Part shown: piece after piece, positions 387-14,526 of the stretch
Layout of the letters: each line of letters opens with the position of its first letter
Position numbering within the stretch: position 1 is the first letter of the stretch
IMG/VR virus record: IMGVR_UViG_2778261256_000010
Span: 1-14,526 of that record
DNA from: a virus
Taxonomy: Duplodnaviria > Heunggongvirae > Uroviricota > Caudoviricetes
Length of the DNA: 14,526 nucleotides
Direction: 5' to 3' (one strand)
The notes under the pieces: generated by a model
Told to the model about the DNA's origin: nothing
Databases searched by the model: none
The model's input: only the letters and a program-made list of their open reading frames with translations
Program-made: the position numbers and the translations under genes

Positions 387-618
387 ATTTTTTGTTCTGT
401 TGATATAGGATGAACAGTTTAGACGCGGCAAGCGCCAAGTGTGCGAAAAGGGTACTTAAATTTAGTTTATCTGTCAGCTTTGTTAATATAGTTTATAGAT
501 GGTAAAGTTAACAGAAAACTAATCACAGCTAGAAATAATGACTTATTTAATTATTGTGACGCTGCACAAGATATACTTAAATTATAACAACGATAAATAT
601 AATTAAAGGGAAATCAAA

Positions 619-1032
619 ATGAGCAAAAATAAGCTGATTTTAACAGGAGCTTTATTGTCGTTATTTGCTTTAGTGGGGTGTAAACCCACCGACGAGAAGG
701 CTATTTCTCTGGGTCAACAGGCAATTGCGGATGATATGAAAGACCCCTCGTCTGTAATGTTTAGAAAAGATAAGTTCGTCAGGACTGATCATAATGACGG
801 GAGAGTTACCGGTTTTGTGTGCGGTGAATTAAACGCAAAAAATGGATTTGGTGCATACGTGGGCTACCACTCATATGTTGTCGAACTTGAAATGAAATCA
901 AAGGGCATGTTTTCTAAAGGTGTGGAATACAAAATCCTCATGAAGTCATTGGCACCAAACGAGCCTCATGATTTACAGCGTTATAAGCAGGTCTACAGAG
1001 AGATGTGCAACAGTGAGGCTGTAGCTCATTAA
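619..1032 (+). CDS. small lipoprotein, unknown function
   Basis: 137-aa ORF with RBS AAAGGGA 6 nt upstream; N-terminus MSKNKLILTGALLSLFALVGC has a signal peptide and lipobox (LVGC). Confidence 0.7.
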   Translation: MSKNKLILTGALLSLFALVGCKPTDEKAISLGQQAIADDMKDPSSVMFRKDKFVRTDHNDGRVTGFVCGELNAKNGFGAYVGYHSYVVELEMKSKGMFSKGVEYKILMKSLAPNEPHDLQRYKQVYREMCNSEAVAH

Positions 1033-1095
1033 TGTGAATGCCGGGCTTATCGTCTGCCTGGCTTCTTCGTATAGCAGACTATTGCGCCCGATATA

Positions 1096-1115
1096 ATAAG
1101 TAGATACTTACTTAT
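1096..1115 (+). repeat. 20-bp motif ATAAGTA-NN-TACTTACTTAT, copy 1 (identical arms to the copy at 4689-4708; near-copy at 11336-11355)
   Basis: ataagtagatacttacttat, 42 bp upstream of the 1157 start codon and immediately downstream of a perfect TATAAT (1092-1097). Confidence 0.55.
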
Positions 1116-1156
1116 TTTTCTGAAAGAATACTTTCATCTGTTAGTCAGGAGTTGCT

Positions 1157-1951
1157 ATGAAAGAAGAATTTCAGAAGTTAGTCTGCGACATCATCGACAA
1201 ATCCGGCGTAGAAATTGATACAGAAGAGCGCCAGAAGATTATCGACGAGGCGATCCAAACTGCACTGGAGCATATCGCCACGTCCGTGAGCACCGTACCT
1301 CTTTCGGAAGGCTCGAAATACATGCAGGTCTGGGTTCGTTTTGGAGAGTCCCCGGAGTTGCCAGGTGTTAAGCAGAAACGCGCGGCACTTGTGGCGTTCT
1401 CTCGCGAGATGAAAGACGCAACGGTCGAAGTGAGTACCGGTGCATGGTACGACGGCCGCATTGTCTACACCAATCAGACTGTGTGCGATAAAGGTGAACG
1501 GTTTGAGGATATTGTCGACGCAACTCTTCGCACGCTCAAAGTCAGAGCTGGTGTGGCGGATGATCCGTCCATCGCGGCGTTCCTGAGTATTGTCGAACAG
1601 TCTGAAGTTACCGAGCGCGTAACAGATCTGACAACTCCACCTGGTTTGCTGGAATTGGTGGTCAGTGGCGATATCAAAAAAGCCGTTGAGCGCATTCGTG
1701 AGGTGGAATACGGCATTATCTGCGATATGTGCCGCAGCGACTTAGACCTGGTGCGCATCATTGTCGACGCGGGTCAGGCATGTGACGGAGTACTCGCCAG
1801 TTTTGCAGGGCAAGTGGCTCGTCTGGCCAACGAATTACCCATGATTAAACAAGAAGCCAAATCCTACGCCGTTCATCGTACCAACGATTTACTGGACCCA
1901 TACCGGTTCGAAGCTGCTCAGGACAAAATGACTGGCTGGGCGACCTGGTAA
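1157..1951 (+). CDS. hypothetical protein (264 aa), no recognisable motif
   Basis: Long ORF with strong RBS AGGAG (1147-1151) 5 nt upstream, followed by its own terminator. Antisense ORFs 1171..1461 and 1474..1761 are taken as shadows. Confidence 0.7.
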   Translation: MKEEFQKLVCDIIDKSGVEIDTEERQKIIDEAIQTALEHIATSVSTVPLSEGSKYMQVWVRFGESPELPGVKQKRAALVAFSREMKDATVEVSTGAWYDGRIVYTNQTVCDKGERFEDIVDATLRTLKVRAGVADDPSIAAFLSIVEQSEVTERVTDLTTPPGLLELVVSGDIKKAVERIREVEYGIICDMCRSDLDLVRIIVDAGQACDGVLASFAGQVARLANELPMIKQEAKSYAVHRTNDLLDPYRFEAAQDKMTGWATW

Positions 1952-1969
1952 GCCTCGATAAAACATTTA

Positions 1970-1990
1970 GCCCCCTCGTGGGGCTTCTTT
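1970..1990 (+). terminator. Rho-independent terminator
   Basis: GCCCC-ctcgt-GGGGC stem-loop followed by TTCTTT, 19 bp after the stop of the 264-aa gene. Confidence 0.6.
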
Positions 1991-2032
1991 AAACTGCGAT
2001 TAATAAGTAAGTACAAGATTACGGTTAGAAGC

Positions 2033-2509
2033 ATGTCCACAAGAACAGATTTGTCGAAAATCCCGTCTATCTCCGGAAACAACGGTTATTCGCTGCGCTG
2101 CCCGGAAGTGAAGCTCAACGGCCATGAGGCTCATTGCAGCTATACAGTCTGCCAACACACGATCCTCGCCTATAAAGAAAAACGTCTCCCGGCTACATCG
2201 TTCCAGTCCTGCGCTGCGGCTATTGCTGCTGGTAAATGTCAGGCACTGAAAATGATGGTCGAAGAGATCCGCAAAGACGAACAGCTCTACTTCATCGATA
2301 TGTCTTCACTTATCAAAGAAGTGGAAGAGCAAAACGACCATGCCAGAACGCTCCCCCGGAAGCGAAACACCGCGACAATTGACAGTCTTATTCATCGCAC
2401 GAAGAAAACAGAACCTGCTAAATCCGAAACCAATCCCACCGATTCACTGGCGCCGATCACTGACGTGTACGCGGCACTCATTGAAGAAGCAACCAAAGAA
2501 AACACATGA
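2033..2509 (+). CDS. hypothetical Cys-containing protein (158 aa)
   Basis: ORF directly upstream of and co-oriented with the ligase; five Cys in the N-terminal half (C23, C35, C40, C60, C69) suggest a possible metal-binding module. No family recognised. Weak RBS. Confidence 0.55.
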   Translation: MSTRTDLSKIPSISGNNGYSLRCPEVKLNGHEAHCSYTVCQHTILAYKEKRLPATSFQSCAAAIAAGKCQALKMMVEEIRKDEQLYFIDMSSLIKEVEEQNDHARTLPRKRNTATIDSLIHRTKKTEPAKSETNPTDSLAPITDVYAALIEEATKENT

Positions 2510-2543
2510 AAACTCCCGAGCGACCGATGGAGGTTAAACACTA

Positions 2544-3866
2544 ATGGAAAAACTGATCGCCCTAAAGCACAAGCTGGATGCTATTAAAACGATGGGAACC
2601 AACGCCAAGAAAGAGGCGCTGGCCAATCTGGATGAATTTGAACAGAGCATGGTCTCGCTAATGCTCAATCCATTCATTCGATTCGGTGTGAAGAAGTACA
2701 AAGTGGCCGAGCCACTCGATACTTCCGTACCCAGCGACCAGAAGGTAGTAGATCTGCTGGAGAAGCTGGCAGCGCGCGAACTGACCGGGAACATCGCTAT
2801 TGCTGCTGTCGAATCACTCGTTGCCTCGATGTGCGCTGACGGGCAGGACGTGTTTCGTCGCTTCCTGCTGAAAGATCCGAAAGCCGGTGTCGGCATCAGC
2901 CTGTGCAACAAGGTGTTCGAAAACCCAATTCCGAAGTTTGAGGTACAGCTGGCGTCTCCGTACAAGGAGAAAGGCGACAAATACCCATTTAAACCAAATC
3001 CAAAGGCCAAGTGGCCAATGATCGGCAGTCTCAAACTCGATGGTCTCCGGGTTATCTGCGAAGTCATCGTGGACGAGGGTGAGGTCAATTTCCTGACGCG
3101 CACCGGCAATCCGATTACGTCACTCGATCACCTTAAACCAGCCATGCTGGAGCGGGGCAGACTCTCCGGCTTCAATCACATCTTCTTCGATGGAGAGGGC
3201 ACTGCAGGTACATTCAACCAGTCAGTGTCGGCGCTTCGTAAGAAGAACGTGAAAGCCATTGGTGCCGTTTACCACATTTTCGATTTCTTCTTACCGGAGT
3301 GGCGTGCTCAAGCAAAAAGCAAAGAGTACCTGAAGACCGGTATGAAGCTGAAAGAGCGCCTGGCTATGCTGGTGGCGTTGTTCCGCAACACTTGCGTGGA
3401 AGATTATGCGCAAGATATCCACCTTCATCCGTTCTACATCATCCATAGCCACGAAGATTTCATCGAACGTTTCATGAAGCGACTGGACGAGAATGAAGAG
3501 GGAGAGATGGACAAAGATCCGGATTCAGTTTACGAGTTCAAACGTACCCGCAGCTGGTGGAAGCTGAAAGACGAGGATTCAGAAGACGGTGAAATCATCG
3601 ACTTCGAGCCTGGCGATCCGGATTCTGGATTTGCGCATACGCTAGGCAAGATAGTGATTCGTCTGGAGAACGGCGTCATCGTTCGTGCCAGCGGTATCAA
3701 GCATAAATACCTGGATGAAATCTGGAACAATCAGGAGAAGTATCGTGGACGCATCGTTGAGGTTCACTGCCATGAGAAAACGCCAGATGGTAGCTTGCGT
3801 CATCCACGTCTGAAGTGGCCTAAATGTCTTCGAGATACCGAAGATCGTATTGGAGATAAAGAATGA
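2544..3866 (+). CDS. ATP-dependent DNA ligase, phage T4 gp30-like
   Basis: RBS GGAGG upstream. Nucleotidyltransferase motif I KLDGLR (K164, 3033-3050), FFDGEG, WWKLK, and the C-terminal LRHPRLKWPKCLRD (motif VI-like). The N-terminal domain aligns by eye with T4 ligase (ARELTGNIAIAAVESL...ISLCNKVF...LASPYKEKGDK versus T4 TRKLTGNAAIEELTGY...VSIANKVW...LASSYDEKGINK). Confidence 0.85.
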   Translation: MEKLIALKHKLDAIKTMGTNAKKEALANLDEFEQSMVSLMLNPFIRFGVKKYKVAEPLDTSVPSDQKVVDLLEKLAARELTGNIAIAAVESLVASMCADGQDVFRRFLLKDPKAGVGISLCNKVFENPIPKFEVQLASPYKEKGDKYPFKPNPKAKWPMIGSLKLDGLRVICEVIVDEGEVNFLTRTGNPITSLDHLKPAMLERGRLSGFNHIFFDGEGTAGTFNQSVSALRKKNVKAIGAVYHIFDFFLPEWRAQAKSKEYLKTGMKLKERLAMLVALFRNTCVEDYAQDIHLHPFYIIHSHEDFIERFMKRLDENEEGEMDKDPDSVYEFKRTRSWWKLKDEDSEDGEIIDFEPGDPDSGFAHTLGKIVIRLENGVIVRASGIKHKYLDEIWNNQEKYRGRIVEVHCHEKTPDGSLRHPRLKWPKCLRDTEDRIGDKE

Positions 3867-4042
3867 TGCTCGGCTGGATGTTTGTATTTTTAGTCGTCGG
3901 CATTGTTATCGGAAGTCTGGTTATGTCCAGCTGTATCCACGATTACGTAAAAGCCGGTGTCATGCAAAGGCGAGGTCGTATTTATCGCATAGTAGATATC
4001 ACGGACACACTGAAGGAGATTAAGGATGATCATGTTAAGTAA
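3863..4042 (+). CDS. small membrane protein (59 aa), not in the supplied ORF track
   Basis: ATG at 3863 overlaps the ligase stop (ATGA); RBS GGAGA 7 nt upstream; MMLGWMFVFLVVGIVIGSLVMSS is a predicted TM helix; stop TAA 4040-4042. Translated by hand. Confidence 0.45.
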   Translation: MMLGWMFVFLVVGIVIGSLVMSSCIHDYVKAGVMQRRGRIYRIVDITDTLKEIKDDHVK

Positions 4043-4238
4043 ACGAGAGAAGGAAACCCTGCGTGAAATTAGCAAGTGGAAGGAGTTCTACGCCAACTGG
4101 AAGCCGAAGACCAGAGCCAAACTGGAGCGCATGAATCTTGTCGCCAACGTTTCTCCAAAGGGATGTATTGAGAACTATCAACTGACTGAAAAAGGTTATT
4201 TGTTGTTGCAGCAATTGACTGAGGCGGGGGCGCACTGA
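4026..4238 (+). CDS. small hypothetical protein (70 aa)
   Basis: Strong RBS AAGGAG (4013-4018) 7 nt upstream of ATG 4026; soluble, charged sequence; stop overlaps the next start. Confidence 0.55.
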   Translation: MIMLSKREKETLREISKWKEFYANWKPKTRAKLERMNLVANVSPKGCIENYQLTEKGYLLLQQLTEAGAH

Positions 4239-4390
4239 TGATTCCATACATCATTTTATCTTTTACTGGTGGCGTGGGCCTCGGCCTCGCAATCTGCCGC
4301 GCCCTGGTCCAGCAGGAACTGCAAACCAAAACACTTCGTGTCGGTAAGCGTGTGTATCGGGTTGTTCACGAGACGGGAGTGCGAAAATGA
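4238..4390 (+). CDS. small membrane protein (50 aa), not in the supplied ORF track
   Basis: ATG 4238 overlaps the upstream stop (TGATG); MIPYIILSFTGGVGLGLAICRAL is a TM helix; stop TGA 4388-4390 overlaps the ATG of the next gene (4387). Confidence 0.4.
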   Translation: MIPYIILSFTGGVGLGLAICRALVQQELQTKTLRVGKRVYRVVHETGVRK

Positions 4391-4692
4391 GCAATTTGAC
4401 TTCCTTCGACTGGTGGCTGGCAACCTACCTTGTGGCGGCCGGCTTCGGATTTGCCTTTTACATTGGTCAGTTAATCGTAAAGCTACTGCTGATCAGATTC
4501 GCCAGCCATAAACGCATAGACGACGGTCTGTGGCGTCTGGGGTCCCTGTTAGAGACGCATTACGGCGAACTCAAGGAAAACGAAACTATCACTATTCAAG
4601 CGAAGCGTTTTACCGCCATCATCACGAGAACTCCGGAACAAAAGGGGAGCCTGATCAAAAAGATAGCAACTAAACGCATCACAGATAGATAA
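4387..4692 (+). CDS. small membrane protein (101 aa)
   Basis: N-terminal TM segment WWLATYLVAAGFGFAFYIGQLIV followed by a charged C-terminal domain; translationally coupled to the preceding small gene. Confidence 0.6.
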   Translation: MSNLTSFDWWLATYLVAAGFGFAFYIGQLIVKLLLIRFASHKRIDDGLWRLGSLLETHYGELKENETITIQAKRFTAIITRTPEQKGSLIKKIATKRITDR

Positions 4693-4708
4693 GTATTTAC
4701 TTACTTAT
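4689..4708 (+). repeat. 20-bp motif ATAAGTA-NN-TACTTACTTAT, copy 2
   Basis: ataagtatttacttacttat, overlapping the stop codon of the 101-aa gene; followed by CTAATAT...TATAAGAT, which is shared with copy 3. Confidence 0.55.
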
Positions 4709-4884
4709 CTAATATGTATAAGATCACTTTGTTTTCGTTGAGATGCGACTGTTTGAACGTTAAATATAACTGCAAACGAAGATGCATACCTGGCAGTAGC
4801 CTAAGAAGCCAAACACCAGCGAGGTCAGTTTCCAGCCTCGTCACCAAAATGGGACACACTGAGCGAGTGTGATTGCAGAACGCA

Positions 4885-4916
4885 GAATAGGGCATATTGC
4901 ACCATCCATGCCCTAT
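4885..4916. other. perfect 10-bp-stem hairpin (AATAGGGCAT / ATGCCCTATT, 12-nt loop)
   Basis: Direct reading; no U-tract after it, so not a classical terminator. Confidence 0.5.
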
Positions 4917-5071
4917 TCAATGAAGTAACAGAATGGGCGGTTGGTTTCATCATTCCATTCACCCATCCCGGTTTCAGCTGACCGTCCATTCTGTTACGTC
5001 ATTTCCATTACTTATGTCGTTTATACTTGGGTTAAAAGCGGCGACGTAACCCGGCTGACTTGGTTAGTCAG

Positions 5072-5189
5072 CACATAACGTTGAGATCACTGATTTTTCT
5101 TAAAATCATACAGGCGATTCCACATAGCTGTAGCGACTGATCAATATGTTGGGTTGAACATTAATCGGTTCAGTGATCTCAACGTTGTG
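5072..5189. repeat. 17-bp perfect inverted repeat (5076-5092 / 5169-5185; 20 of 21 if extended) flanking a 76-bp spacer
   Basis: AACGTTGAGATCACTGA and its exact reverse complement TCAGTGATCTCAACGTT; three GATC sites within the element. Confidence 0.55.
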
Positions 5190-5435
5190 AAAGCAGGATT
5201 AATTAACCCTCTAGTGAAAACATTGTTGCCTTTATTGCCCCTGACTTCACAACATGTATGATTCCATACATCCAATAAGATCGAAGAATCTAACGGCAAT
5301 CAACCACCGAGAAAGATTCCAGATCTTCGCTCATATGAGCGAGCCACATACCTCGTCTGGCACTAACGTAAAGTGCAAGTTGCGGGAAAGTTTCTGGCTG
5401 CCTGGTTGTCCATAAGCTAGTACCGCCGCGAAAAT

Positions 5436-5510
5436 GATGGTGTAGCTCAGTGGTAGAGCGGTTGACTGTTAATCAACTGGTCGGTGGTTCGAGTCCACCC
5501 ACCATCGCCA
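5436..5510 (+). tRNA. tRNA-Asn (anticodon GTT at 5468-5470)
   Basis: Folded by hand into a full cloverleaf: 7-bp acceptor stem GATGGTG/CACCATC, D-arm GCTC-AGTGGTA-GAGC, anticodon stem GTTGA/TCAAC with loop CTGTTAA, T-arm GGTGG-TTCGAGT-CCACC, discriminator G, encoded CCA. Confidence 0.9.
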
Positions 5511-5663
5511 ACATAGCGCTGAACGGTTTGGATTCGCCACCACCGTCCGAACGAAAGACTCCGCAAATGTCGCCAGACCGTTCAGCGCTGTGATAGACAC
5601 GGCAGACGTTTTTTAACCATTGCTTCTAAGCATCGTAGCAACACTTTTTTCAGCGCAAAATCC

Positions 5664-5685
5664 AAAGGGGCTTCGGCCCCTTTTT
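5664..5685 (+). terminator. Rho-independent terminator downstream of the tRNA
   Basis: AAAGGGGC-TTCG-GCCCCTTTTT: GC-rich stem, tetraloop, T-run. Confidence 0.7.
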
Positions 5686-5764
5686 GCTATCAAGTCGCAT
5701 ATGCAACCAACTTTTTTTAGCTTATAGTTAAGTTCAGTAGTAGAATGCTACGCTTCGTCGAGAA

Positions 5765-6313
5765 ATGACGATTATGGAGTCTATCGTGAAATTTAAAATC
5801 CAGCATTTGCAGGCAGCAGTGGCACTGGTTCTTGCCAGTATCCAGCCGCAACCCAAAGCGGTTGCGTGTCAGCCTACGATTGTAGAACGGGTTTATGAGA
5901 TGGGCGCTAGAGTCAACAAAACCGACATCAGTGATCTTACAGCTGCTCTCAATGAATTGGCTAAAGAACTGCGTTCAAGCCGCGCTGAACTTGCTCATTA
6001 TGCTGACACTGACTTCTTTGCTGCTATCAAAGTAGCGGAAGAAATTAAGAATCAAACTATTCATGTAGCCGGTATCGCAGAATCTTTTGTTTTGATGTTA
6101 CCTGAAAAAGACGTCATCATGTCTTACGACAAAAACACTGTTGAGTTTGCGTTTTTTAAGGCTATTAAAATGGTCAGTATTGCGACCAAAAACTATCTCA
6201 ATCTGATTGATCAGATTACACGCACTTCTGTAGTGCGTGACTCTGGTGTCAACCTTTTAGCCATGAACCATCTATTAGAGACTGGCAACAAGGCTGCGGC
6301 TAAATGGCATTAA
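5765..6313 (+). CDS. putative antitoxin-like partner of the YafO-family toxin (182 aa; true start uncertain)
   Basis: ORF ends 10 nt inside the toxin gene (6304-6313 overlap), the usual toxin-antitoxin coupling. No recognisable Phd/YefM or RHH sequence signature; much larger than E. coli YafN (~97 aa). Confidence 0.45.
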   Translation: MTIMESIVKFKIQHLQAAVALVLASIQPQPKAVACQPTIVERVYEMGARVNKTDISDLTAALNELAKELRSSRAELAHYADTDFFAAIKVAEEIKNQTIHVAGIAESFVLMLPEKDVIMSYDKNTVEFAFFKAIKMVSIATKNYLNLIDQITRTSVVRDSGVNLLAMNHLLETGNKAAAKWH

Positions 6314-6720
6314 CGGCTGAATACAGTCAAGTTACGTGGGATGATTTTTTTCAGCCCACTTTTGTCGTTTACCCTGACCTAGAAAGTCAGCTCAAATCCG
6401 AGTTCATTACTTACAAATCAACTGGCGCACCATCTAATCTTCTTGGACGAGATGCGCCATTTGACTTCCCGCCGTTCGCCGTTGATGCTAATGTCCAGCA
6501 TATTCACGTCAATTTGCATTTCCAGCTTACCTGGAACGCAAGGCAAGAGAACTACAACCGAACCTCAAACCACTATCTCGTTTATACCGAGCACATGTGG
6601 GATAGCGGGCGTTTTTTGCTGATGGGGCTAGTCACTCCAGCTCACGATCGTATGCCAGCAAGAGATACTAGGTTGCTCAGCTACTTCGCTGAAGTCGCAG
6701 AAGGTTTCCATTCTAGCTGA
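6304..6720 (+). CDS. yafO: YafO-family type II toxin (ribosome-dependent mRNA interferase family)
   Basis: Aligned by eye to my recollection of E. coli YafO: FITYKSTGAPSNLLGRDAPFD vs FISYKRDGVLPDIFGRDALYD; VQHIHV vs VAHIHL; RTSNHYLVY vs RTNDEAHLVY; FLLMGLVTPAHDRMPARD vs WLLIAILKPEPHKLARD. Confidence 0.7.
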   Translation: MALTAEYSQVTWDDFFQPTFVVYPDLESQLKSEFITYKSTGAPSNLLGRDAPFDFPPFAVDANVQHIHVNLHFQLTWNARQENYNRTSNHYLVYTEHMWDSGRFLLMGLVTPAHDRMPARDTRLLSYFAEVAEGFHSS

Positions 6721-6887
6721 ACTTTAGCGATCGTCATCTTCTTCATCATTCTTTTTCTTCTAACAAATCATTCTCATCAATCTGGCTCAGATGGCATTCC
6801 AAAGTTGGCGTTATTAGGCGCTTTTTACTATTTAGCGTTTAAGATGGTTTGTCTACATAATTTATTCAGAATTTACGTAAGCTATAT

Positions 6888-6922
6888 AAATGATTCCATA
6901 CTTGTAAGGTATGGAATCATTT
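6888..6922. promoter_or_regulatory. perfect 14-bp inverted repeat AAATGATTCCATAC-N7-GTATGGAATCATTT (candidate operator)
   Basis: Exact palindrome about 100 bp upstream of the recombinase ORF; shares the core TGATTCCATAC with the 15-bp direct repeats at 4238 and 5258. Confidence 0.5.
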
Positions 6923-6973
6923 TCAAAAACAGTCTATTTTACTGTTGATCATACAAAAACTGAGGCCTAACAC

Positions 6974-6992
6974 ACTGTTTATAAATACAGTA
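6974..6992. promoter_or_regulatory. LexA (SOS) box-like site, CTGT-N8-ACAG
   Basis: ACTGTTTATAAATACAGTA against the gammaproteobacterial consensus TACTGTATATATATACAGTA; AT-rich spacer; about 30 bp upstream of ATG 7021. It is the only CTGT-N8-ACAG I found in the window. Confidence 0.5.
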
Positions 6993-7020
6993 AAAACAGG
7001 CTTCACTCAGTGAGTGGACT

Positions 7021-8124
7021 ATGAAAAACACTTTTGATAAAGCACGCGCAGCAGAAAACACCTCTAGAGAAGCCATCGAGTATCTCGAACGCGCTTCCGG
7101 TTTGTCAGCAGTGTCGACCACCAATTTCGACGGTGACATGTCGTTTTCTTCCGCATTCATGTTATTCACTCGCTTATCTTTGCTGATAACGAGACGTCGA
7201 CCTGAAATAGCTGTTCATTGTATTTTGATACATGTAATGCCGCATATCTGTGAAGTAAAAGTAAGTGACATTAGTAGGGTTTTAGTCAACCAGCTGGTGA
7301 ACCCATTAATACTTGAGGGCAAGATCGTCCAGGGCAGACGTGTGTTCTCGCTGATGAAGCAGTTTCTCAGTTGGTGTGCATTTCAGGGCTTAATTGATAC
7401 ATCCCCATTGAACGATATGTCGCTTAACAGAGTAGCCGGTGGCGCGAAGCCCACGCCGCGCGAGCGCAAACTGACCGACGCAGAGGTCTGGGTCTTTTGG
7501 AATGTATGGGACTACTTCAACGTATGTGAGGGTACAAAGTGGGCGGCCAGATTATGCCTTGTAGCGGCCAGACGACCAGATGAAGTGCTCCGAGCTAAAA
7601 GATCAGAATTCAACCTCGAATATAATTTATGGAATCAAGGAACGAGGAATAAATCGGCTCGCCAGCACTCGTTACCATTAAGCCCGCTAATGCGCAAATG
7701 TGTTGAGGAGCTGATCAAATACGGAAAAGGCAGCCAGTGGCTTGTTCCTTCAAACAAGAAACAGGGTGAGGATGTGCCAATGTCTAAGGTGGCCATATCA
7801 CAGGCGTTGAGAAGGATTTTAGAACGTCCAGAGTTGATGGAGCTTGAGCCATTTACCCCCCGAGATTTGCGTCGTACTGCGCGTAGTTACTTCCCCGCGT
7901 TAGGCATAAGTCAGGAGGTATCCCGCAAAATTATGAACCACAGTCTTGAGGGGATAGATCGAGTATACGATCGACACGATTATATAGACGAGATGCGAGA
8001 CGCCTTAAACAGTTTTTCGGCGTACATCGCATCAATCGTAGAGAAACAGGATTTAGAGGAGATAGATCATAAGTTCAAGGGAGATCGACTCGCTACTGAG
8101 CTAATCCGTGTAAATTTCTCATAG
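7021..8124 (+). CDS. tyrosine recombinase/integrase, P4-like catalytic core; arm-binding N-terminal domain absent, first ~60 aa unrelated
   Basis: Core-binding-like segment from about aa 70 (HVMPHICEVKVSDISRVL...VFSLMKQFLSWCAFQGLIDTSPLNDMS); catalytic signatures ARRPDEVL (box I Arg), FTPRDLRRTA (box II, with R where His is usual), NHS, and RVYDRHDY (catalytic Tyr). Confidence 0.65.
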   Translation: MKNTFDKARAAENTSREAIEYLERASGLSAVSTTNFDGDMSFSSAFMLFTRLSLLITRRRPEIAVHCILIHVMPHICEVKVSDISRVLVNQLVNPLILEGKIVQGRRVFSLMKQFLSWCAFQGLIDTSPLNDMSLNRVAGGAKPTPRERKLTDAEVWVFWNVWDYFNVCEGTKWAARLCLVAARRPDEVLRAKRSEFNLEYNLWNQGTRNKSARQHSLPLSPLMRKCVEELIKYGKGSQWLVPSNKKQGEDVPMSKVAISQALRRILERPELMELEPFTPRDLRRTARSYFPALGISQEVSRKIMNHSLEGIDRVYDRHDYIDEMRDALNSFSAYIASIVEKQDLEEIDHKFKGDRLATELIRVNFS

Positions 8125-8517
8125 CGACTTGATTGCCTCAACAACCCGCTCCGACGCACCACGTTGGTCACCGAAACGTCGACGGAAGGCTTCCAGAACT
8201 AGTTTTTCATCTTTAGTCAGAGGGGCTGTGCCTTCGTCGCGAAAAAACGCTAACAGCTCTGGATGACGCTCTTCCAGCACCATTAGCATCAATCGGACCG
8301 AATCGGCATCCAATGCTTTAGCCAACGCTCTGACCTTGTCGATCGGAAGCGGGATTTTGCCGCTCTTGATAAGTGAAAGATTGTTAGGGTTTTTATAGCC
8401 TGCTTCTTTCGCGATGGTCGCCTGGCTTTTCGGAGAAATCGCGATTAAAGCGTCAATGTAAGCAGCGTAGCGACCTACTTTAGCTTCTGTTGTTTCGTTG
8501 GTAGCCATAATTATCAA
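8119..8517 (-). CDS. helix-turn-helix (XRE/Cro-like) transcriptional regulator
   Basis: SQATIAKEAGYKNPNNLSLIKSGKIPLPIDKVRALAKAL is a canonical HTH; convergent with and overlapping the recombinase 3' end by 6 bp. Start may be the second ATG (MATNE...). Confidence 0.65.
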   Translation of the reverse strand: MIIMATNETTEAKVGRYAAYIDALIAISPKSQATIAKEAGYKNPNNLSLIKSGKIPLPIDKVRALAKALDADSVRLMLMVLEERHPELLAFFRDEGTAPLTKDEKLVLEAFRRRFGDQRGASERVVEAIKSL

Positions 8518-8764
8518 CCTGCGTGTTTTGATTTTATTTGGTAAGTGCTTACTGATATTACATCAAAGGTTAGTGTTGTAAAGACTTATCTATTTTTTTA
8601 CGTAGGTTTACTGACCGCAAAAGGCTTCATTAATAGACAACTATCTAAAAAATAACTCATTTAAGAACTTAAAACTAAGTTGTATTTGATATATAAGTAT
8701 TCCGTATTGATACAATAGGTAGTAGTATTGCAAGGCATTTACGTGTTCAGTTGGATGATATGAA

Positions 8765-8977
8765 ATGAAAAAAATAACTTCTAATTTGATCGCCCTTGAG
8801 GTCGGACATACGGTTTCAATTGACGATGATGGGGCAGCAGCCATACTCACTGAACTGCCAACAAAGTCTTTGTTACTTGACATGAAAGACGCAACCGCAT
8901 ACATCTTTGAGCTAAAGGGCAAGTGCTTCACTCTCATCAATACCGGCTGCGGTTCAGTAGCCGTCCGCACAAGTTAA
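8765..8977 (+). CDS. small hypothetical protein (70 aa)
   Basis: RBS-like GGATGA upstream; sits just upstream of the vWA gene; could be spurious (AT-rich surroundings). Confidence 0.35.
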   Translation: MKKITSNLIALEVGHTVSIDDDGAAAILTELPTKSLLLDMKDATAYIFELKGKCFTLINTGCGSVAVRTS

Positions 8978-9002
8978 CACCACCCCTCCCATCCTCTCTA
9001 GC

Positions 9003-9037
9003 GCCTGTACGAACAGATTAGATGCCTGTTCGTACAG
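9003..9037. promoter_or_regulatory. tandem near-palindromic sites GCCTGTACGAACAG / GCCTGTTCGTACAG (candidate operator pair)
   Basis: CTGTACGAACAG (9005-9016) and its exact reverse complement CTGTTCGTACAG (9026-9037), 9-bp spacer, about 55 bp upstream of the preferred start of the vWA gene. Confidence 0.45.
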
Positions 9038-9090
9038 TGATAAATTACGCACATCAGAAAACAAATTGTTTTAACAACAAGGGAATTCTA

Positions 9091-11319
9091 ATGTCCAAAA
9101 AAACCACCAAAGCTGTACTGAAAGAGGTGCAGGATTTTCGCGACTGTGTAAAACGAGTTGTAGCGATGCTTTCAGGTAAACAGATACCTGTTGCAGAACG
9201 AGGCAATGAAGCATATGTCCGCTATAACCGGCGCGGCGAACCAGTGCTGGTAAACATCCCATCTATACCGGACGACGCGTCGCCAACCCTCATGAACGCA
9301 GTGCGTGGTTTTCTCGACCATGAGGTGGCCCATATTCTCTTTACTGAACCGAAAGTCGCAATGCAGATGCGCGAAAGAGGAAAGGCTCCGTCTACGGGGC
9401 TTTGGAATGCGCTGGAAGACGTTTTTATTGAACGCAGAATGGGGCAGGTCTTTAACGGAACCCGGCGTAATTTACTTGCAACACAGAGTCTGGTTATCGA
9501 CAAATACTTCAGGAATAAAGTACCAGAAGCGGTTTTAGCCTGTCACGGAGACCAGCGTGAATTGTTTTTGAAATTCTTCCTTTGCCCGGTCGTCCGCGCC
9601 TGGGATGGACAAAGCCCCTTCATCGATTTTATGGAAGAACACTGGCGCCTTATCGAGAGGCCGGTAGCCTTACTAAAGGAGCATGGTATAGACGTGGCCG
9701 TTCGCAATATGTCGAACACTGAGGATTGCGTGAAGGTCGCTGCTGCTATAGCCCAAATCATGCAGGATATGAAAGACAAGCCAGAGGGCAAATTACCAGA
9801 ACTTAAATCATCTGCCAGAAAGCCGTCGGAGAGCAAAGACGAGTCCGAGGAAACGCCAGAATCAGGTGACGAGCCGTCTCATGGTGACTCTGCATCTAAG
9901 CCTGCCAAAGGCGAAGGCGATGACAAGGAAGAACGAGAAGATGATGCATCAGAAGAGGAAGATTCTGGGGATTCCGATTTGCCTGATTCGTTAGATAAGG
10001 ACTTACCTACACACGTTAAAGATATTAGTGATACAGAAAGTAAATATACAGAAGCAGGCCACGAAGAGTCAGGAGACACCCCAGAATCCGATGCTATCGG
10101 CATGAAATCAAGTGACTCTGACACCGATGGTGATGGCGGTGAGGACTCCGATACTGATCGTGGGGAAACTGAAGAAGACGTCGAAGGCAAAAAAAATAAA
10201 GATGGTGCGGAAGTGCCCAAAGACAGTGAGTCTGGCTTTGTTCCTGCGCCGGATGAAATGACTCTGGAGGAGGCGCTAAAGGCGCTCGACGAGATGGAAG
10301 ACGGAATCGGTGAAATGACCGAAGACGCACTGTCGGCCACCATCAGCAAAGAGCTTATGAGCGTCTCACCTTCTGATTATCGGCCATACGATCGATCATA
10401 CGACTTTATCGGGTTGATTGATGGAGCCGAAGAGCATGTGAAGCGCACCAGAAAGACGTTCGGTGCAATACCAATGCACTCACCAGTCGACCGCTACCGT
10501 ATGGTGCCAGAAGGCAGAAAACTCTTTGAACTGAAAATCGAAAAACATCTGTCTGCAGGCGTTTCTTCGACGCTGGCCAAAGACCTGGAGCGGGCCATCG
10601 CCAGCCGCAACCGAGTTCAGTTTATACCTGGTCAGAGGCGTGGGCGGATACATGGCGCGAGCCTGTATCGTCTGGCAATGAACGACGACCGAGTGTTCCG
10701 CAAGAAGGAAGACCATAGAGCGGTGAACGCGTGTGTCCAGCAAGTCATCGACTTGTCCGGCTCAATGGATGGCGTGAAGATTCAACTGGCCCTAGCCAGT
10801 GCCTATACCATTGCGGATGCTTTAGATCGTATCAATGTCCCCAACATCATCACCGGCTTTACCACGTTCGGTAGCCCAGATTATGAAACCAGGTCGAAGC
10901 GCGGGTTTACACGCTTCGAGGCGCTCATGCTGCCCATTATCAAAAACTGGAATGAGAAAGCAAACTCTCCAGAGATCCGTGCTCGCATGGGATGCGTATG
11001 TGAGACGTTCCCCCTGCTCAATAACGTCGATGGTGAGAGTGTCGCGCAACTGGCTACCCTGTTTGCAGGGCGAATGGAGGACAAAAAGATCATGCTGGTT
11101 ATGAGTGATGGGGAGCCATGTGCTACAGGTAGTGGATTCCATCAGCATTTACGAACCGTCACCAAAGAAATTGAGACCTTGAGCGACATCGAACTGATGG
11201 CTATCGGCATTCTGACCGACGAACCACGGCGTTACTACAAAAATTACGCACTGGTTAACAGTGTTGAAGAGTTAGGGCCGTCAGTCGTCACTGAGTTATC
11301 TCGTATCATTCTTGGGTAA
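9091..11319 (+). CDS. CobT/BchD-like architecture: N-terminal HExxH (zincin-like) module, ~170-180 aa acidic Ser/Asp/Glu-rich linker, C-terminal von Willebrand factor A domain
   Basis: Preferred start ATG 9091 (RBS AAGGGA 6 nt upstream); the track ATG 9022 lies inside the palindrome and lacks an RBS. HEVAH at 9319-9333 with Glu in NALEDVFIERR about 25 aa downstream (gluzincin-like spacing). vWA MIDAS DLSGS (10750-10764), then GFTT and MSDGEP. Confidence 0.75.
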   Translation: MSKKTTKAVLKEVQDFRDCVKRVVAMLSGKQIPVAERGNEAYVRYNRRGEPVLVNIPSIPDDASPTLMNAVRGFLDHEVAHILFTEPKVAMQMRERGKAPSTGLWNALEDVFIERRMGQVFNGTRRNLLATQSLVIDKYFRNKVPEAVLACHGDQRELFLKFFLCPVVRAWDGQSPFIDFMEEHWRLIERPVALLKEHGIDVAVRNMSNTEDCVKVAAAIAQIMQDMKDKPEGKLPELKSSARKPSESKDESEETPESGDEPSHGDSASKPAKGEGDDKEEREDDASEEEDSGDSDLPDSLDKDLPTHVKDISDTESKYTEAGHEESGDTPESDAIGMKSSDSDTDGDGGEDSDTDRGETEEDVEGKKNKDGAEVPKDSESGFVPAPDEMTLEEALKALDEMEDGIGEMTEDALSATISKELMSVSPSDYRPYDRSYDFIGLIDGAEEHVKRTRKTFGAIPMHSPVDRYRMVPEGRKLFELKIEKHLSAGVSSTLAKDLERAIASRNRVQFIPGQRRGRIHGASLYRLAMNDDRVFRKKEDHRAVNACVQQVIDLSGSMDGVKIQLALASAYTIADALDRINVPNIITGFTTFGSPDYETRSKRGFTRFEALMLPIIKNWNEKANSPEIRARMGCVCETFPLLNNVDGESVAQLATLFAGRMEDKKIMLVMSDGEPCATGSGFHQHLRTVTKEIETLSDIELMAIGILTDEPRRYYKNYALVNSVEELGPSVVTELSRIILG

Positions 11320-11335
11320 TAGCTTACCCTTAAAA

Positions 11336-11355
11336 ATAAGTAACTACTTACTATA
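11336..11355 (+). repeat. 20-bp motif, copy 3 (ATAAGTA-AC-TACTTACTATA)
   Basis: 17 bp after the vWA gene stop and about 60 bp upstream of the zinc-finger gene; followed by CTAATAT...TATAAGAT as at copy 2. Confidence 0.5.
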
Positions 11356-11413
11356 CAGCCTAATATATTTCTATAAGATATACCCCACAAACGACAAACA
11401 GTAAGGAAAAAAC

Positions 11414-11680
11414 ATGACCGCTACTGCACTACAGCAAGAAGAACATTTGCCGGAAGCCATCGTCTGCAAGTGGTGTGGCAAATCCTTTCATTACCTGAAA
11501 TCCCATATCTCTATGGGCCGTTGCGAGAATATTCCTGAGTCTGCGAAGGGTCTGGACGTGGACGAAGTGGTGAAGATGTACACCTCTGCGTTTCCAGATG
11601 AACCAACGATCTCTCGCACGGCACTGGCCAAACTCAATGAGAAGGGGTCGTTTGCGGGAGGGGGCGGAATCCTACGCTAA
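11414..11680 (+). pseudogene. Ros/MucR-type zinc-finger mini-protein, 3' end replaced by the Tn3-family inverted repeat (native part 11414-11643)
   Basis: RBS AAGGA 6 nt upstream. IVCKWCGKSFHYLKSHI matches the Ros/MucR zinc-finger IVCLECGGSFKSLKRHL, and SRTALAKLNEKG matches ARSRLAKEMGLG. From codon 78 the ORF is encoded by the transposon IR (GSFAGGGGILR). Confidence 0.5.
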
Positions 11681-11681
11681 G
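11644..11681. repeat. Tn3-family 38-bp terminal inverted repeat (GGGG...ACGCTAAG)
   Basis: GGGGTCGTTTGCGGGAGGGGGCGGAATCCTACGCTAAG; outer GGGG at 11644; the tnpA stop (CTA on +, 11677-11679) lies inside the IR, as is typical of the family. Confidence 0.8.
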
Positions 11682-14449
11682 GCTTTGGCCAGCGATATTC
11701 TCCGGTGAGATTGATGTGTTCCCATCCGAGCGGCGAAACATGGGCCAAGAGATCGGGCGATAGCAGCTTTCCATCGCGTTTCTGGTTTGCAACGACCTCG
11801 CCGAGCTTCATGGTGTTCCAGAAGATGATGATGGCGGCGAGCAGATTCATGCCGGCGATGCGGTAATGCTGGCCTTCGGCGGAACGGTCGCGGATTTCAC
11901 CGCGGCGGTGGAAGCTGATTGCCCGCTTCAGCGCATGATGAGCTTCGCCTTTGTTGAGCCCGATCTGGGCACGCCGTTGGAGTTCGGCATCCAGAATCCA
12001 GTCGATCATGAACAGGGTGCGCTCGACGCGACCGACTTCCCGCAGGGCTGTCGCGAGCTCGTTCTGCCGCGGATAGGAGGCGAGTTTCCGCAGAATCTGG
12101 CTTGGCGCGACGGTCCCGGCAGCAATGGTGGCGGCGATGCGCAGGATGTCGGGCCAATTGCGCTCGATCATGGCTTGGTTGACCTTTCCGCCGATCAACG
12201 CTCGCAGGTGCGCCGGGGCGGCCGACGGATTGAACGCGTAGAGCCGTTTGGATGGCAGGTCGCGGATGCGCGGAGCGAACCGGTAGCCGAGAATGGCACA
12301 TGCGGCAAAGACGTGATCGGTGAAGCCGCCCGTGTCGGTGAACTGCTCGCGGATATGGCGTCCAGCATCGTTCATCAGCAGGCCATCGAGGATGTAAGGC
12401 GCTTCGCTTGCCGTTGCAGGAATCACCTGGGTTGCGAACGGCGCATATTGGTCGGAGACGTGGCTATAGGCTTTCAGGCCCGGGGTATTGCCATATTTCG
12501 CGTTGACCAGGTTCATGGCCTCACCTTGCTCTGTAGCGACGAAGAACTGTCCGTCGCTCGAAGCCGACGTGCCCATGCCCCAGAACCGGGCCATGGGTAA
12601 CGCTGCCTGTGCCTCGACCACCATGGCCAGCGCCCGGTCATAGGCTTCGCCCTCGACATGCCACCGTCCAATGCGGATCAATTCCCAGAAGGTGTGGGTG
12701 TTTGTCGCATCCGCCATTTTGCGCAAGCCGAGGTTGATCCCTTCCGCCAAGATAACGTTCATTAGCCCGATCCGGTCAGCGCAGGGTGCTCCTGTGCGCA
12801 GATGGGTGAACGCTTCGGTGAAGCCGGTCGCCGCATCCACCTCCAGCAGGAGATCGGTGATGCGCGTGGGCGGGATCTGCTTGTAGAGATCGAGCACCAG
12901 ATCTTCGGCGCCTGTCGGCGCGGCGGCTTCGAGTTTCTCGATATGCAGAACGCCGTTTTCAATCGACCCGCCCGGGATCGTGCCTGCGCGAGCGGCACGG
13001 CCAAGCTCGCGCAACCGCATGTCGAGGCGAGCTTGCCGGTCTGCCAGCCATTCCTCCGGCCGCAATGGCACAGCGAGACGACCGCCTTCCGCGATGGATT
13101 GTGCCGGAACGAGTGCGTGTTTCAGATCGCCATAGCGCCGGGACCTAGTAAGCCAGACATCTCCGGAGCGGAACGCATCGCGCAGATGGAACAGCACCGC
13201 GATCTCCCATAGGCGAGCGTCGCCAGCCCTCTGGGCCCGAAGGTGGCGATGCCATTTCGAGCTGGGCCGCAAGAAGCTGGTCATCGCGGCATCGTTCAAA
13301 CCGGTACGAAGGGCCGTCACCGCTTCCAGAAGCGGCAGTGCAACGGGCGCAGCTCGCAGATCGAGCAGGCGCAACATGCGTGGAGCGTATCGGCGGAAGC
13401 GGTGATAACCGTCGAGCACATGATTGAGCGGATCGTCGGCCATGGTGGCGGTCAGCCTGGTTGCCATTGCAACAAGGGTTTTTAAGCCGTCCCACCCTGA
13501 CCCACTCGCGATGACATCGCCCAGCGGCTGGCCATCATCCTGTGCATCGACCAGGGCGCCCCCGATCTCGGCGAAGGATTTCAGGGTGTCACGCACCACC
13601 CCCGCTTCGTCTGCGACCTTTGCATGGCAAATACGCTCCGAAGCACGGTAGAGACGGCCGACGATCCGGTCGTGGGTTTCGACCACTGCGTCGGCCAACA
13701 TCGCCTGCCATTCCGAGACGCAAACAGCCAAGATCGCAAGCCGCCTGTCCTCCGGGAGATCGCGCATGCCGTCGGCATAATACCGTTCACCCTGCCTGCG
13801 CAGACGAGTCACCCGATGGGCAGGAACGCCGGCAAGCAGATCCTCGGGGAGATCGATGCGTTGCAGATATTCGAGCCGGTCGAGCAGCCGGTTGGCCGAC
13901 GAAGAGTTCGAGCCAGGCTCGAACTGGCGCAGCCACACAAAACGGGTCACCCGATCATCAGCCGTCTCCTCGAGCAATGCCAGCAACTGTTCTCGGATCG
14001 ACATAGGCAGCCGACTGGCGATCCTCGTCTCGATGCGTCGCTCGGCATCGACGAGAGCCGCGGCACAAAGCCGCTCGATCGTGGATGTCGCGGGAAGGAC
14101 AGTGCGGGTGCGTCGGCACTCGGCTACGAAGCGACGGGCGATATCCTCGTTCGACACCGCCATCTCGGCTTCTCGGAACAACCATTCCTTCAGCTCGCTC
14201 GCACCACGTCCGGAGAAGGTGCGGAAGCCGTAGAGCCCCCGTAACTCGGCAAGATGCTCGTGCCGTGTTTCCTCGCGGGCAGCATAGTCTACGAGATCGT
14301 CGGCACCCAGGCCAAGCTGCGCTCCGATAAATTCGATGACCTCTGCAGGGATCAGTTCGCCTGGAGCCAGCACCCGGCCGGGATAGCGCAGGACACACAA
14401 TTGCAGGGCGAAGCCGAACCTGTTGTGAGCGCGCCGACGCAGCCTGATA
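11644..14449 (-). mobile_element. Tn3-family transposon remnant (one IR plus 5'-truncated tnpA; no res, tnpR or cargo in view)
   Basis: High-GC block bounded by the 38-bp IR on the left and the IS10 outside end on the right. Confidence 0.8.
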
Positions 14450-14505
14450 CTGATGAATCCCCTAATGATTTTTATCAAAATCATTAAGTTAAGGTAGATA
14501 CACAT
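11677..14505 (-). CDS. tnpA: Tn3-family transposase TnpA, 5'-truncated (first ~18 codons of the ORF are IS10-derived; native part 11677-14449)
   Basis: 942-aa ORF; C-terminus ...LSPLGWEHINLTGEYRW is the Tn3-family signature; N-proximal SIRLRRRAHNRFGFALQLCVLRYPG matches Tn21 TnpA near residue 37-60 (recalled), so about 35 N-terminal residues are missing. Opposite-strand ORFs in this block are GC-rich shadows. Confidence 0.9.
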   Translation of the reverse strand: MCIYLNLMILIKIIRGFISIRLRRRAHNRFGFALQLCVLRYPGRVLAPGELIPAEVIEFIGAQLGLGADDLVDYAAREETRHEHLAELRGLYGFRTFSGRGASELKEWLFREAEMAVSNEDIARRFVAECRRTRTVLPATSTIERLCAAALVDAERRIETRIASRLPMSIREQLLALLEETADDRVTRFVWLRQFEPGSNSSSANRLLDRLEYLQRIDLPEDLLAGVPAHRVTRLRRQGERYYADGMRDLPEDRRLAILAVCVSEWQAMLADAVVETHDRIVGRLYRASERICHAKVADEAGVVRDTLKSFAEIGGALVDAQDDGQPLGDVIASGSGWDGLKTLVAMATRLTATMADDPLNHVLDGYHRFRRYAPRMLRLLDLRAAPVALPLLEAVTALRTGLNDAAMTSFLRPSSKWHRHLRAQRAGDARLWEIAVLFHLRDAFRSGDVWLTRSRRYGDLKHALVPAQSIAEGGRLAVPLRPEEWLADRQARLDMRLRELGRAARAGTIPGGSIENGVLHIEKLEAAAPTGAEDLVLDLYKQIPPTRITDLLLEVDAATGFTEAFTHLRTGAPCADRIGLMNVILAEGINLGLRKMADATNTHTFWELIRIGRWHVEGEAYDRALAMVVEAQAALPMARFWGMGTSASSDGQFFVATEQGEAMNLVNAKYGNTPGLKAYSHVSDQYAPFATQVIPATASEAPYILDGLLMNDAGRHIREQFTDTGGFTDHVFAACAILGYRFAPRIRDLPSKRLYAFNPSAAPAHLRALIGGKVNQAMIERNWPDILRIAATIAAGTVAPSQILRKLASYPRQNELATALREVGRVERTLFMIDWILDAELQRRAQIGLNKGEAHHALKRAISFHRRGEIRDRSAEGQHYRIAGMNLLAAIIIFWNTMKLGEVVANQKRDGKLLSPDLLAHVSPLGWEHINLTGEYRWPKP

Positions 14506-14526
14506 CTTGTCATATGATCAAATGGT
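14450..14526 (+). mobile_element. IS10-like outside end (5' portion of a second IS10 copy, continuing past the window)
   Basis: CTGATGAATCCCCTAATGATTTTTATCAAAATCATTAAGTTAAGGTAGATACACATCTTGTCATATGATCAAATGGT matches my recollection of the IS10 outside end and pIN/pOUT region with a few substitutions. Confidence 0.8.

Follow-up and report, generated by a model that had tools for sequence, protein, structure and literature searches.

A two-gene cobST cluster has been described across tailed viruses (Liu et al. 2021, PMC8651126). Such pairs are widespread, and they are routinely scored in viromics as auxiliary metabolic genes for vitamin B12. The gene analysed here is a member of this family. It is a cobT-like coding sequence at positions 9091–11,319 (plus strand) of a 14,526-nucleotide stretch of DNA (the window; positions 1–14,526 of the IMG/VR virus record IMGVR_UViG_2778261256_000010), was called from its open reading frame (ORF) and from Pfam and PHROG matches, and encodes a protein of 742 residues. 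The products of SSU5_049 and SSU5_050, annotated as ‘putative porphyrin biosynthetic proteins’, represent the same family in pHCM2/SSU5-type phage-plasmids, and their cobT is the same gene as that of the window. Annotations and descriptions of both the gene and the viral cobST pair exist already, and the family is of a known kind; the window gene is an ordinary annotated gene of a common Escherichia coli phage-plasmid, and its value rests on the function of viral CobST. The explanation that we favour, and consider moderately probable, is that the protein is the CobT-like adaptor of a two-gene machine of the CobT/CobS type, which belongs to a replication block and the partner gene of which has been cut by a transposon in this copy.

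The cobaltochelatase CobSTN of Brucella melitensis (PDB 9uka; bioRxiv 10.64898/2026.07.21.739949) provides the structural reference for such a machine. The N-terminal domain of its CobT, CobT_N, consists of a single helix, a sheet of three strands, and eight helices. It is similar to an M48C peptidase domain and attaches to CobS at the small subdomain of the latter. A linker of about 90 residues, which is disordered in the structures, leads to CobT_C, a vWA domain with a MIDAS (metal ion-dependent adhesion site) formed by D422/S424/S426/N518/D546. The shaft segment of CobT_C enters the CobS ring, and CobN binds CobT on the MIDAS side. The window protein shares with CobT the three-part plan, the shaft segment, and the full set of five MIDAS residues, and the ATPase partner is of the AAA_5 type in both Brucella CobST and the phage pair.

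The same logic, in which a vWA-MIDAS co-factor is coupled to a helix-2-insert AAA+ motor, is found in NorQ–NorD, CbbQ–CbbO, RavA–ViaA, and Midasin. However, these MoxR/vWA pairs are different sequence families, and NorD matches the window protein by profile only at E-values of 0.002–0.007. A phage MoxR–vWA pair with an N-terminal metallopeptidase domain on the vWA protein has been reported (Iyer et al. 2021, PMC7824862); this jumbo-phage pair shares with the window protein the idea of a peptidase-plus-vWA fusion, and the two are alike by description only. The M48/M56 gluzincin metallopeptidases, which include Ste24/ZMPSTE24, BlaR1, and the minigluzincins, are also among the nearest known systems.

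Source element and truncated cobS partner

The region of the window containing cobT matches many IncFIB plasmids of E. coli and Escherichia fergusonii at 99.4–99.7% nucleotide identity, and the locus is 99.6% identical to IncFIB phage-plasmids. The SSU5_049 protein of Salmonella phage SSU5 is 91.8% identical to the window protein, and identity rises to 99–100% for hundreds of proteins from E. coli plasmids that bear the name ‘cobaltochelatase CobT-related protein’ or ‘porphyrin biosynthesis protein’. Because of the identity to IncFIB plasmids and to SSU5_049, and because of the named E. coli proteins, the window is identified, at the level of sequence, as an SSU5-type phage-plasmid.

A first-pass annotation of the window had described the 742 residues as a zincin-like domain, an acidic linker, and a vWA domain, and had proposed a profile search for CobT. 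The search matched Pfam CobT at residues 11–331 (1.7e-35) and CobT_C at residues 535–742 (1.3e-108). The profile of phrog_1576 spans residues 7–741 with its positions 1–728 of 729, which makes the protein a full-length member of the viral CobT-like family. In an AlphaFold model calculated with 50 diverse homologues, the predicted local distance difference test score (pLDDT) is 79.8; both ends of the protein are confident, and residues 234–381 are disordered. The described anatomy is borne out by the positions of the motifs, the Pfam matches, and the model.

In the intact elements CP057716, SSU5, and PhiR41_1, cobT is followed after about 95 nucleotides by a gene for a 411-residue ‘AAA family ATPase’ and then by the gene for DNA polymerase III alpha (DnaE). 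The intact partner matches AAA_5 at 4.5e-15 (related locus L001) and phrog_249 at 2e-108. In the window, the ORF at 11,414–11,680 begins with 77 residues that are identical to the N-terminus of the 411-residue AAA_5 ATPase of L001 and L002 (SSU5), and diverges from it at 11,645. Positions 11,414–11,644 (plus strand) are, by this identity, the first 77 of the 411 codons of a cobS-like AAA+ ATPase gene, and the ATPase domain (AAA_5, residues 173–293) is missing from the remnant. Nucleotide homology to the intact plasmids ends at 11,644. The junction that truncates cobS is formed by a terminal inverted repeat of the Tn3 family, GGGGTCGTTTGCGGGAGGGGGCGGAATCCTACGCTAAG (11,645–11,682), recognized from its sequence and from the adjacent transposase, which is encoded by the ORF at 11,677–14,505 on the minus strand (DDE_Tnp_Tn3, 1.3e-143).

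The protein had been regarded in the first-pass annotation as an orphan in a window without an ATPase, possibly after loss of its partner to downstream transposon insertions. The loss is as suspected; the window does, however, retain the 5′ remnant of the ATPase gene, and the orphan state is secondary, because a Tn3-family transposon cut off the cobS-like gene. Relatives were compared in a synteny sample of 75 IMG/VR loci, in which CobT identity ranges from 100% down to 28%. A cobS-like gene lies directly downstream of cobT in all 71 viral loci that extend far enough, an adjacency that is characteristic of the viral cobST cluster; a look at homologous neighbourhoods for a CobS/MoxR-like ATPase had been proposed earlier. 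The window copy differs from the described viral cobST clusters in the reduction of its cobS to 77 codons by the transposon; the neighbours of the intact relatives match those of the window. The disrupted copy amounts to a natural loss of cobS in a phage-plasmid which, evidently, is still maintained as a plasmid.

Several further features of the transposon were observed. The inverted repeat at 11,645 is presumably of the Tn5393 type. The transposase gene is itself 5′-truncated, since its DUF4158 match begins at profile position 35. The sequence from 14,450 reads CTGATGAATCCCCTAATGATTTT..., which resembles an IS10 terminal repeat. No record in PLSDB or among complete E. coli genomes contains the exact cobS–transposon junction. 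Many unrelated plasmids match the transposon end in Megablast, and these matches start 12 nucleotides before the inverted repeat, at 11,633–11,644 within cobS, which is either an over-extension of the alignments or a shared flank.

Domain structure and relationship to cobaltochelatase

The N-terminal domain of the window protein comprises approximately residues 1–233 (9091–9789, plus strand). It is modelled with a pLDDT of 90.9 as a helix, a three-stranded sheet, and a helical bundle, which is the topology described for the CobT_N crystal structure. Residues 77–81 form the motif HEVAH (H77, E78, and H81; 9319–9333, plus strand), placed as in gluzincins on a helix, that of residues 65–84, which is the first after the sheet. 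The segment E109-D110-x-x-I-E114 (9415–9432, plus strand) supplies two glutamates, both in the helix formed by residues 100–120, as candidates for the third metal ligand. The HExxH motif with a downstream glutamate, as read initially from the sequence, is confirmed.

The first homology search returned only E. coli proteins with 99–100% identity, which were useless for judging conservation. The necessary diversity was provided by an exhaustive representative search with the N-domain, which yielded 130 full-length proteins, each representing a cluster at ≤50% identity. Of these, 128 retain H77 and H81, and 129 retain E78; E109 and E114 are present in all 130, and D110 in 129. The tool used for finding loci independently singled out [LIV]DHEV[AG]H[VIL] as the stretch of highest conservation. 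In addition, residues 75–129 weakly match phrog_459, ‘peptidase’ (5e-5).

By contrast, HExxH is absent from all six genuine CobTs compared, which originate from Brucellaceae, Sinorhizobium, Sphingomonas, Cereibacter, Pandoraea, and Caballeronia. In the alignment, these proteins have D-[AS]-x-A-L-[RQ] in its place, and they retain both glutamates corresponding to E109 and E114. A search with the C-domain of Brucella CobT returned only N-terminally truncated fragments; the N-termini of genuine CobTs were taken from a frameshifted Brucellaceae locus and from cobT genes of chromids and plasmids, and a Methylobacterium ORF in the wrong frame was left out. The numbering of the Brucellaceae CobT agrees with the residues named in the Brucella preprint. 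In that Brucellaceae locus (GCA_012103055.1, 2316–4380), the genuine cobT is split by a frameshift, so that the N-domain, read in another frame, is not part of the called product of 459 residues.

As far as these alignments reach, phage-type CobT keeps the metal-site signature that chelatase-type CobT has lost. The retention of HExxH agrees with the metallopeptidase–vWA observation of Iyer et al. 2021. Zinc binding by the phage-type N-domain is probable, and the domain may cleave a client or clamp it; true peptidase activity is possible, yet on balance doubtful. Structure prediction had been proposed as a check of the zincin fold. The topology of the model equals that of the M48C-like CobT_N, and the domain may have such a fold; E109 and E114, the candidate ligands, also persist in CobTs without HExxH.

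The linker (approximately residues 234–405; 9790–10,305, plus strand) is of low complexity and disordered. Its acidic character, noted at first reading, is confirmed by the composition profile, in which residues ~230–405 are acidic and poor in hydrophobic side chains, and its disorder by pLDDT values below 50 across residues 234–381. It is approximately twice as long as the linker of genuine CobT.

The C-terminal domain (10,306–11,316, plus strand) comprises a shaft-equivalent segment (approximately residues 489–546) and a vWA fold with a MIDAS formed by D554, S556, S558, N645, and D673, in which the DLSGS motif of residues 554–558 is encoded by nucleotides 10,750–10,764. It aligns with residues 355–616 of CobT in PDB 9uka at 5e-19, and with a profile at 3.5e-59. 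The alignment covers the shaft region, and the five MIDAS residues, which are conserved, are aligned with D422/S424/S426/N518/D546 of Brucella CobT, which verifies the intact MIDAS proposed previously. The top Foldseek matches of the vWA domain are the vWA domain of NorD (6e-9) and the MIDAS domain of MDN1 (1e-7). The intact MIDAS together with an AAA_5 partner places the pair in the MoxR class of AAA+/vWA systems, and the sequence of M48C-like CobT_N, acidic linker, and vWA domain with MIDAS is the domain plan of CobT.

The domain plan does not make the pair cobaltochelatase. The equivalog cutoffs are 759 bits for CobT (TIGR01651) and 558 for CobS (TIGR01650). The window protein reaches 76.1 bits on TIGR01651, with residues 486–737 only, and the CobS-like protein 85 on TIGR01650. 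All of 50 diverse family members match TIGR01651 weakly and far below the cutoff, the best E-value being 3e-43. The controls pass: the CobTs of Sinorhizobium, Sphingomonas, and Cereibacter score 1166, 839, and 808 on TIGR01651, and a Brucellaceae CobS scores 684 on TIGR01650. Genuine loci have the order cobS–cobT, whereas the phage type has cobT–cobS, with dnaE after it in 69 of 69 loci. The phage CobS-like ATPase (12,317–13,549 in L001) differs from genuine CobS in that an N-terminal extension of ~160 residues replaces CobS_N. Its N-terminus, IVCKWCGKSFHYLKSHISMGRC, resembles a zinc finger of the Ros/MucR type; the Pfam match to ROS_MUCR (E = 0.16) is not significant. The resemblance to CobT-type vWA partners of AAA+ proteins that had been pointed out in the first-pass annotation holds for Pfam family and fold and fails for the chelatase equivalog, on which the score is 76 against a cutoff of 759. 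The homologues are also not housekeeping cobaltochelatase subunits in cob operons, which, together with an HExxH region that does not fold as a zincin, was to have overturned the first interpretation: they fall short of the equivalogs and stand in replication blocks. In the strict sense, and judged from these scores, the phage-type pair is not a pair of cobaltochelatase subunits.

These results bear on the possibility that the pair is an auxiliary metabolic one, in which viral CobS and CobT act with the CobN of the host to raise cobalamin, for example for a B12-dependent ribonucleotide reductase. The pair shares its Pfam families with cobaltochelatase CobT and CobS, the MIDAS, which is in contact with CobN in the Brucella holoenzyme, is intact, and B12 synthesis is the published reading of the viral cluster. 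However, both equivalog scores are far under the cutoffs, the N-domain departs from genuine CobT precisely at HExxH, the gene order is reversed, and every locus examined presents a replication block and not a cob context, although the flanks were not the subject of a dedicated CobN search. The hosts fit poorly as well. E. coli is not known to synthesize corrin de novo or to possess a CobN, and the route used by Salmonella is the anaerobic one with CbiK; the partner required for cobalt insertion would be missing. The published proposal of a hijacked host CobN is at odds with Enterobacteriaceae as hosts and with the intact HExxH, and we regard it as decidedly improbable for this pair. The equivalog failure, the near-invariant HExxH, the reversed order, and the adjacency to DnaE in hosts that are not known to have CobN are the reasons for doubting the B12 label; they suggest that it is wrong for at least this large clade, and that the pair is an ATP-driven protease or remodeller in replication modules.

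Replication block and possible function of the pair

The sequence neighbourhood of the pair is conserved over large distances. A dnaE homologue is located 0–2.7 kb further downstream in all 69 informative loci, and the order cobT–cobS–dnaE persists down to 28–31% CobT identity. The upstream flank, where it is long enough, includes a ligase gene, often a primase gene, and helicase genes. Pseudomonas phage nickie, with a CobT identity of 33%, has the order primase, ligase, cobT, cobS, one small gene, and dnaE. On this synteny, the cobT–cobS pair is a fixed, core-like part of the replication module across distant phages and not a variable island gene.

It is possible that a MoxR-type ATPase and a metallopeptidase–vWA co-chaperone process or assemble structural proteins of the virion. 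Such a role has been suggested in the case of group 2.2 jumbo phages and demonstrated in the tail development of an archaeal virus, and virion maturation has been proposed for the metallopeptidase–vWA/MoxR phage pair (Iyer et al. 2021, PMC7824862); the weak match of residues 75–129 to a ‘peptidase’ family is in line with it. However, the jumbo-phage family resembles that of the window by description, the pair is next to dnaE in every informative locus, with the ligase and often the primase gene upstream where the flank suffices, and identifiable structural genes are never beside it in the stretches examined. A function in virion assembly is therefore unlikely.

The first-pass annotation had suggested that the protein acts alone as a sensor or effector, or that it is one of the two components of a conflict system (defence or anti-defence), and that it has a tandem operator of its own. 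Kaur et al. 2020 catalogued conflict systems in which a peptidase-like domain and a vWA domain are likewise combined with a MoxR-type partner, and the gene is carried on a mobile element. Nevertheless, PADLOC-DB v2 gives no family match at E ≤ 0.01 for either the CobT-like or the CobS-like protein, and the pair is a conserved component of the replication module across distant phages. The stand-alone version is contradicted by the cobS partner present in all 71 loci and cut by the transposon here; the orphan state follows from that insertion. The supposed operator is a single inverted repeat that also occurs in SSU5, which lacks the XRE-type regulator gene. Both versions are highly improbable.

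The favoured two-gene machine would consist of an AAA+ motor of the MoxR/chelatase clade and a vWA-MIDAS co-factor. In SSU5-type phage-plasmids and related phages, the conserved order of the block is XRE regulator, cobT-like gene, cobS-like gene, and DnaE polymerase gene. By homology to Brucella CobST, the N-domain is predicted to dock on the small subdomain of the ATPase, and the C-domain to sit on the hexamer with the shaft in its pore, so that the MIDAS face could hold a client protein and ATP hydrolysis could remodel it. The insertion of the Tn3-family transposon after codon 77 of the cobS-like gene left the adaptor gene whole yet without its partner, and presumably the machine no longer works. 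It is very unlikely that the client is CobN and the reaction cobalt insertion in E. coli. The leading guess, made from synteny alone, is a protein of the replication or nucleotide-supply apparatus of the phage or the host. It may be speculated further that phage-type CobTs are active, AAA+-coupled zinc metalloproteases, with an HExxH...E head joined through the acidic linker to a MIDAS clamp, that act on a replication-associated client in DnaE-encoding phages and are not chelatase subunits, that chelatase CobT is the derived form, having lost the catalytic histidines and glutamate, and that the pair is under XRE control through GTAA-N4-TTAC sites; this complete scheme is rather unlikely.

Several points weigh against a replication-associated machine. 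The cobT–cobS–dnaE synteny could be the inherited architecture of one large phage clade and not a functional coupling. In the literature (Liu et al. 2021, PMC8651126), viral cobST has been read as a B12 auxiliary metabolic gene pair, and a cyanophage cobT has been called ‘mistakenly annotated as a peptidase’, which disagrees with the retention of HExxH. Literature searches found no experiments on the function of phage CobS/CobT. A phage-plasmid survey from 2025 mentions neither cobT nor cobS.

Additional genes were observed in the replication block. In the most distant relatives (L070, L071, L073, L077–L079, L081, and L082; 9445–9987 in L004), two conserved genes are located between cobS and dnaE. 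The first, of ~210 codons, is sigma-70-like (Sigma70_r2, 1.6e-07), and the second, of ~180 codons, encodes a cysteine-rich protein that starts PGCFG...C..C and has no Pfam match. SSU5-like elements have a 67-residue ORF (phrog_6337) at this place instead. In the record of Xanthomonas phage JGB6, the CobT_C stretch (4273–7025) is annotated as short coding sequences of ‘DNA polymerase III subunit alpha’ and ‘PHP domain’, and the record looks frameshift-fragmented and mis-annotated there. The window itself contains at 2544–3866 an ATP-dependent DNA ligase gene, with weak matches of the type of non-homologous end-joining ligases and with uncharacterised ORFs on either side, which belongs to the replication block shared with SSU5 and phage nickie.

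Putative control region of cobT and upstream genes

A perfect inverted repeat with arms of 12 nucleotides, CTGTACGAACAG-N9-CTGTTCGTACAG (9005–9037), is located 86 nucleotides upstream of the cobT start codon. Its arms are fully complementary, and it can form a hairpin with a calculated RNA folding energy of −18.5 kcal/mol (z = −3.6). The tandem palindromic operator proposed for 9003–9037 is thus a single inverted repeat, which has nothing in common with the control region of the XRE gene. The apparent direct repeat (12 of 14 positions match) arises from a partial self-symmetry of each arm, and this self-symmetry is not conserved in relatives.

SSU5, where no XRE gene is close by, has the identical repeat. 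The arms found in the Klebsiella and PhiR41_1 groups are CTGCGCGAA and TTCGCGCAG, a double compensatory change. When the hairpins of 12 relatives are aligned, 97% of the cells pair, with two compensatory pairs, which probably reflect one event. Distant relatives have unrelated hairpins at the same position, ~80–90 nucleotides upstream of cobT, and several of these are followed by a run of T, in the manner of intrinsic terminators. The repeat is therefore conserved among relatives in position and not in sequence. The position-conserved hairpin is read as lying at the boundary of the cobT transcription unit, and would be either a terminator or insulator or an operator. A function as the operator of the XRE protein is probably not given: no second copy of the motif was found in the window or in relatives, and the conserved palindrome in the XRE leader is a different one.

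The hairpins followed by T-runs are those of L062, L072, L075, L080, and L082. In L072, the loop and 3′ flank of the hairpin contain TTGACT-16-TATTAT, so that a terminator and a near-consensus promoter are apparently nested. In the window, the extended −10-like element TGaTAAATT (9038–9046, plus strand) directly follows the hairpin and is a candidate promoter of cobT; TGnTAnnTT is kept in SSU5, PhiR41_1, and Klebsiella relatives. Scans for consensus sigma-70 promoters and for terminators gave no call at 9003–9090 or in the cobT–cobS spacer.

Upstream of cobT, a helix-turn-helix gene and an ORF of 70 residues are both present as first described. The XRE-type helix-turn-helix gene (8119–8508/8517, minus strand) matches phrog_8, ‘transcriptional regulator’, at 1.2e-10, and Pfam HTH_31 and HTH_3 weakly. 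It had been called convergent; it is divergent from the 70-residue ORF and cobT, and convergent with the integrase gene only. The 70-residue ORF (8765–8977, plus strand), between the XRE gene and cobT, matches phrog_2627 at 8.8e-32 and is conserved in SSU5-like loci at 44–100% identity. Of 79 loci, 72 have an XRE homologue at a distance of ~0.5–1.8 kb upstream of cobT, and one is present in Rhizobium phages too; the XRE gene is therefore a conserved neighbour and a probable regulator. An integrase homologue is upstream of cobT in 63 of the 79.

The arrangement of integrase, XRE gene, 70-residue ORF, and cobT (7021–8977 in the window) is the usual one in SSU5-like elements. The idea that the first three are an unrelated islet inserted at tRNA-Asn was rejected because of the frequencies with which XRE and integrase genes occur upstream of cobT. 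SSU5 lacks the integrase/XRE block, and approximately the last six codons of the 70-residue ORF are left beside its tRNA-Asn (8765–8900 in L002). From this remnant, the reference phage SSU5 looks like a deletion variant without the XRE regulator.

The palindrome GTAAGTGCTTAC (8541–8552) in the leader of the XRE gene matches GTAA-N4-TTAC and is a candidate autoregulatory operator, positioned between a promoter-like site (8582–8555, minus strand) and the XRE start codon. A count of the motif found two further palindromes, candidate XRE operators, in the cobT–cobS spacer, at 11,316–11,327 and 11,340–11,351. Three occurrences in the window compare with 0.10 expected, and none of 200 shuffled sequences reaches three. 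Both locations are conserved in every examined SSU5-like group with an XRE protein at least 60% identical, and the site in the spacer is conserved in SSU5 too; the motif is missing from both locations where the XRE identity is ≤46%. Because of this enrichment, and because the conservation of the motif tracks XRE identity, it is plausible that the XRE protein acts as a regulator through these candidate operators, both at the promoter of its own gene and immediately upstream of cobS.

The remaining features are further from cobT. A tRNA-Asn(GTT) gene at 5436–5510 is followed, at 5765–6720, by an ORF of 182 residues that overlaps a gene for a toxin of the YafO family (PF13957, 1.1e-19). The two are probably a toxin–antitoxin pair, and the YafO region varies among the related loci.

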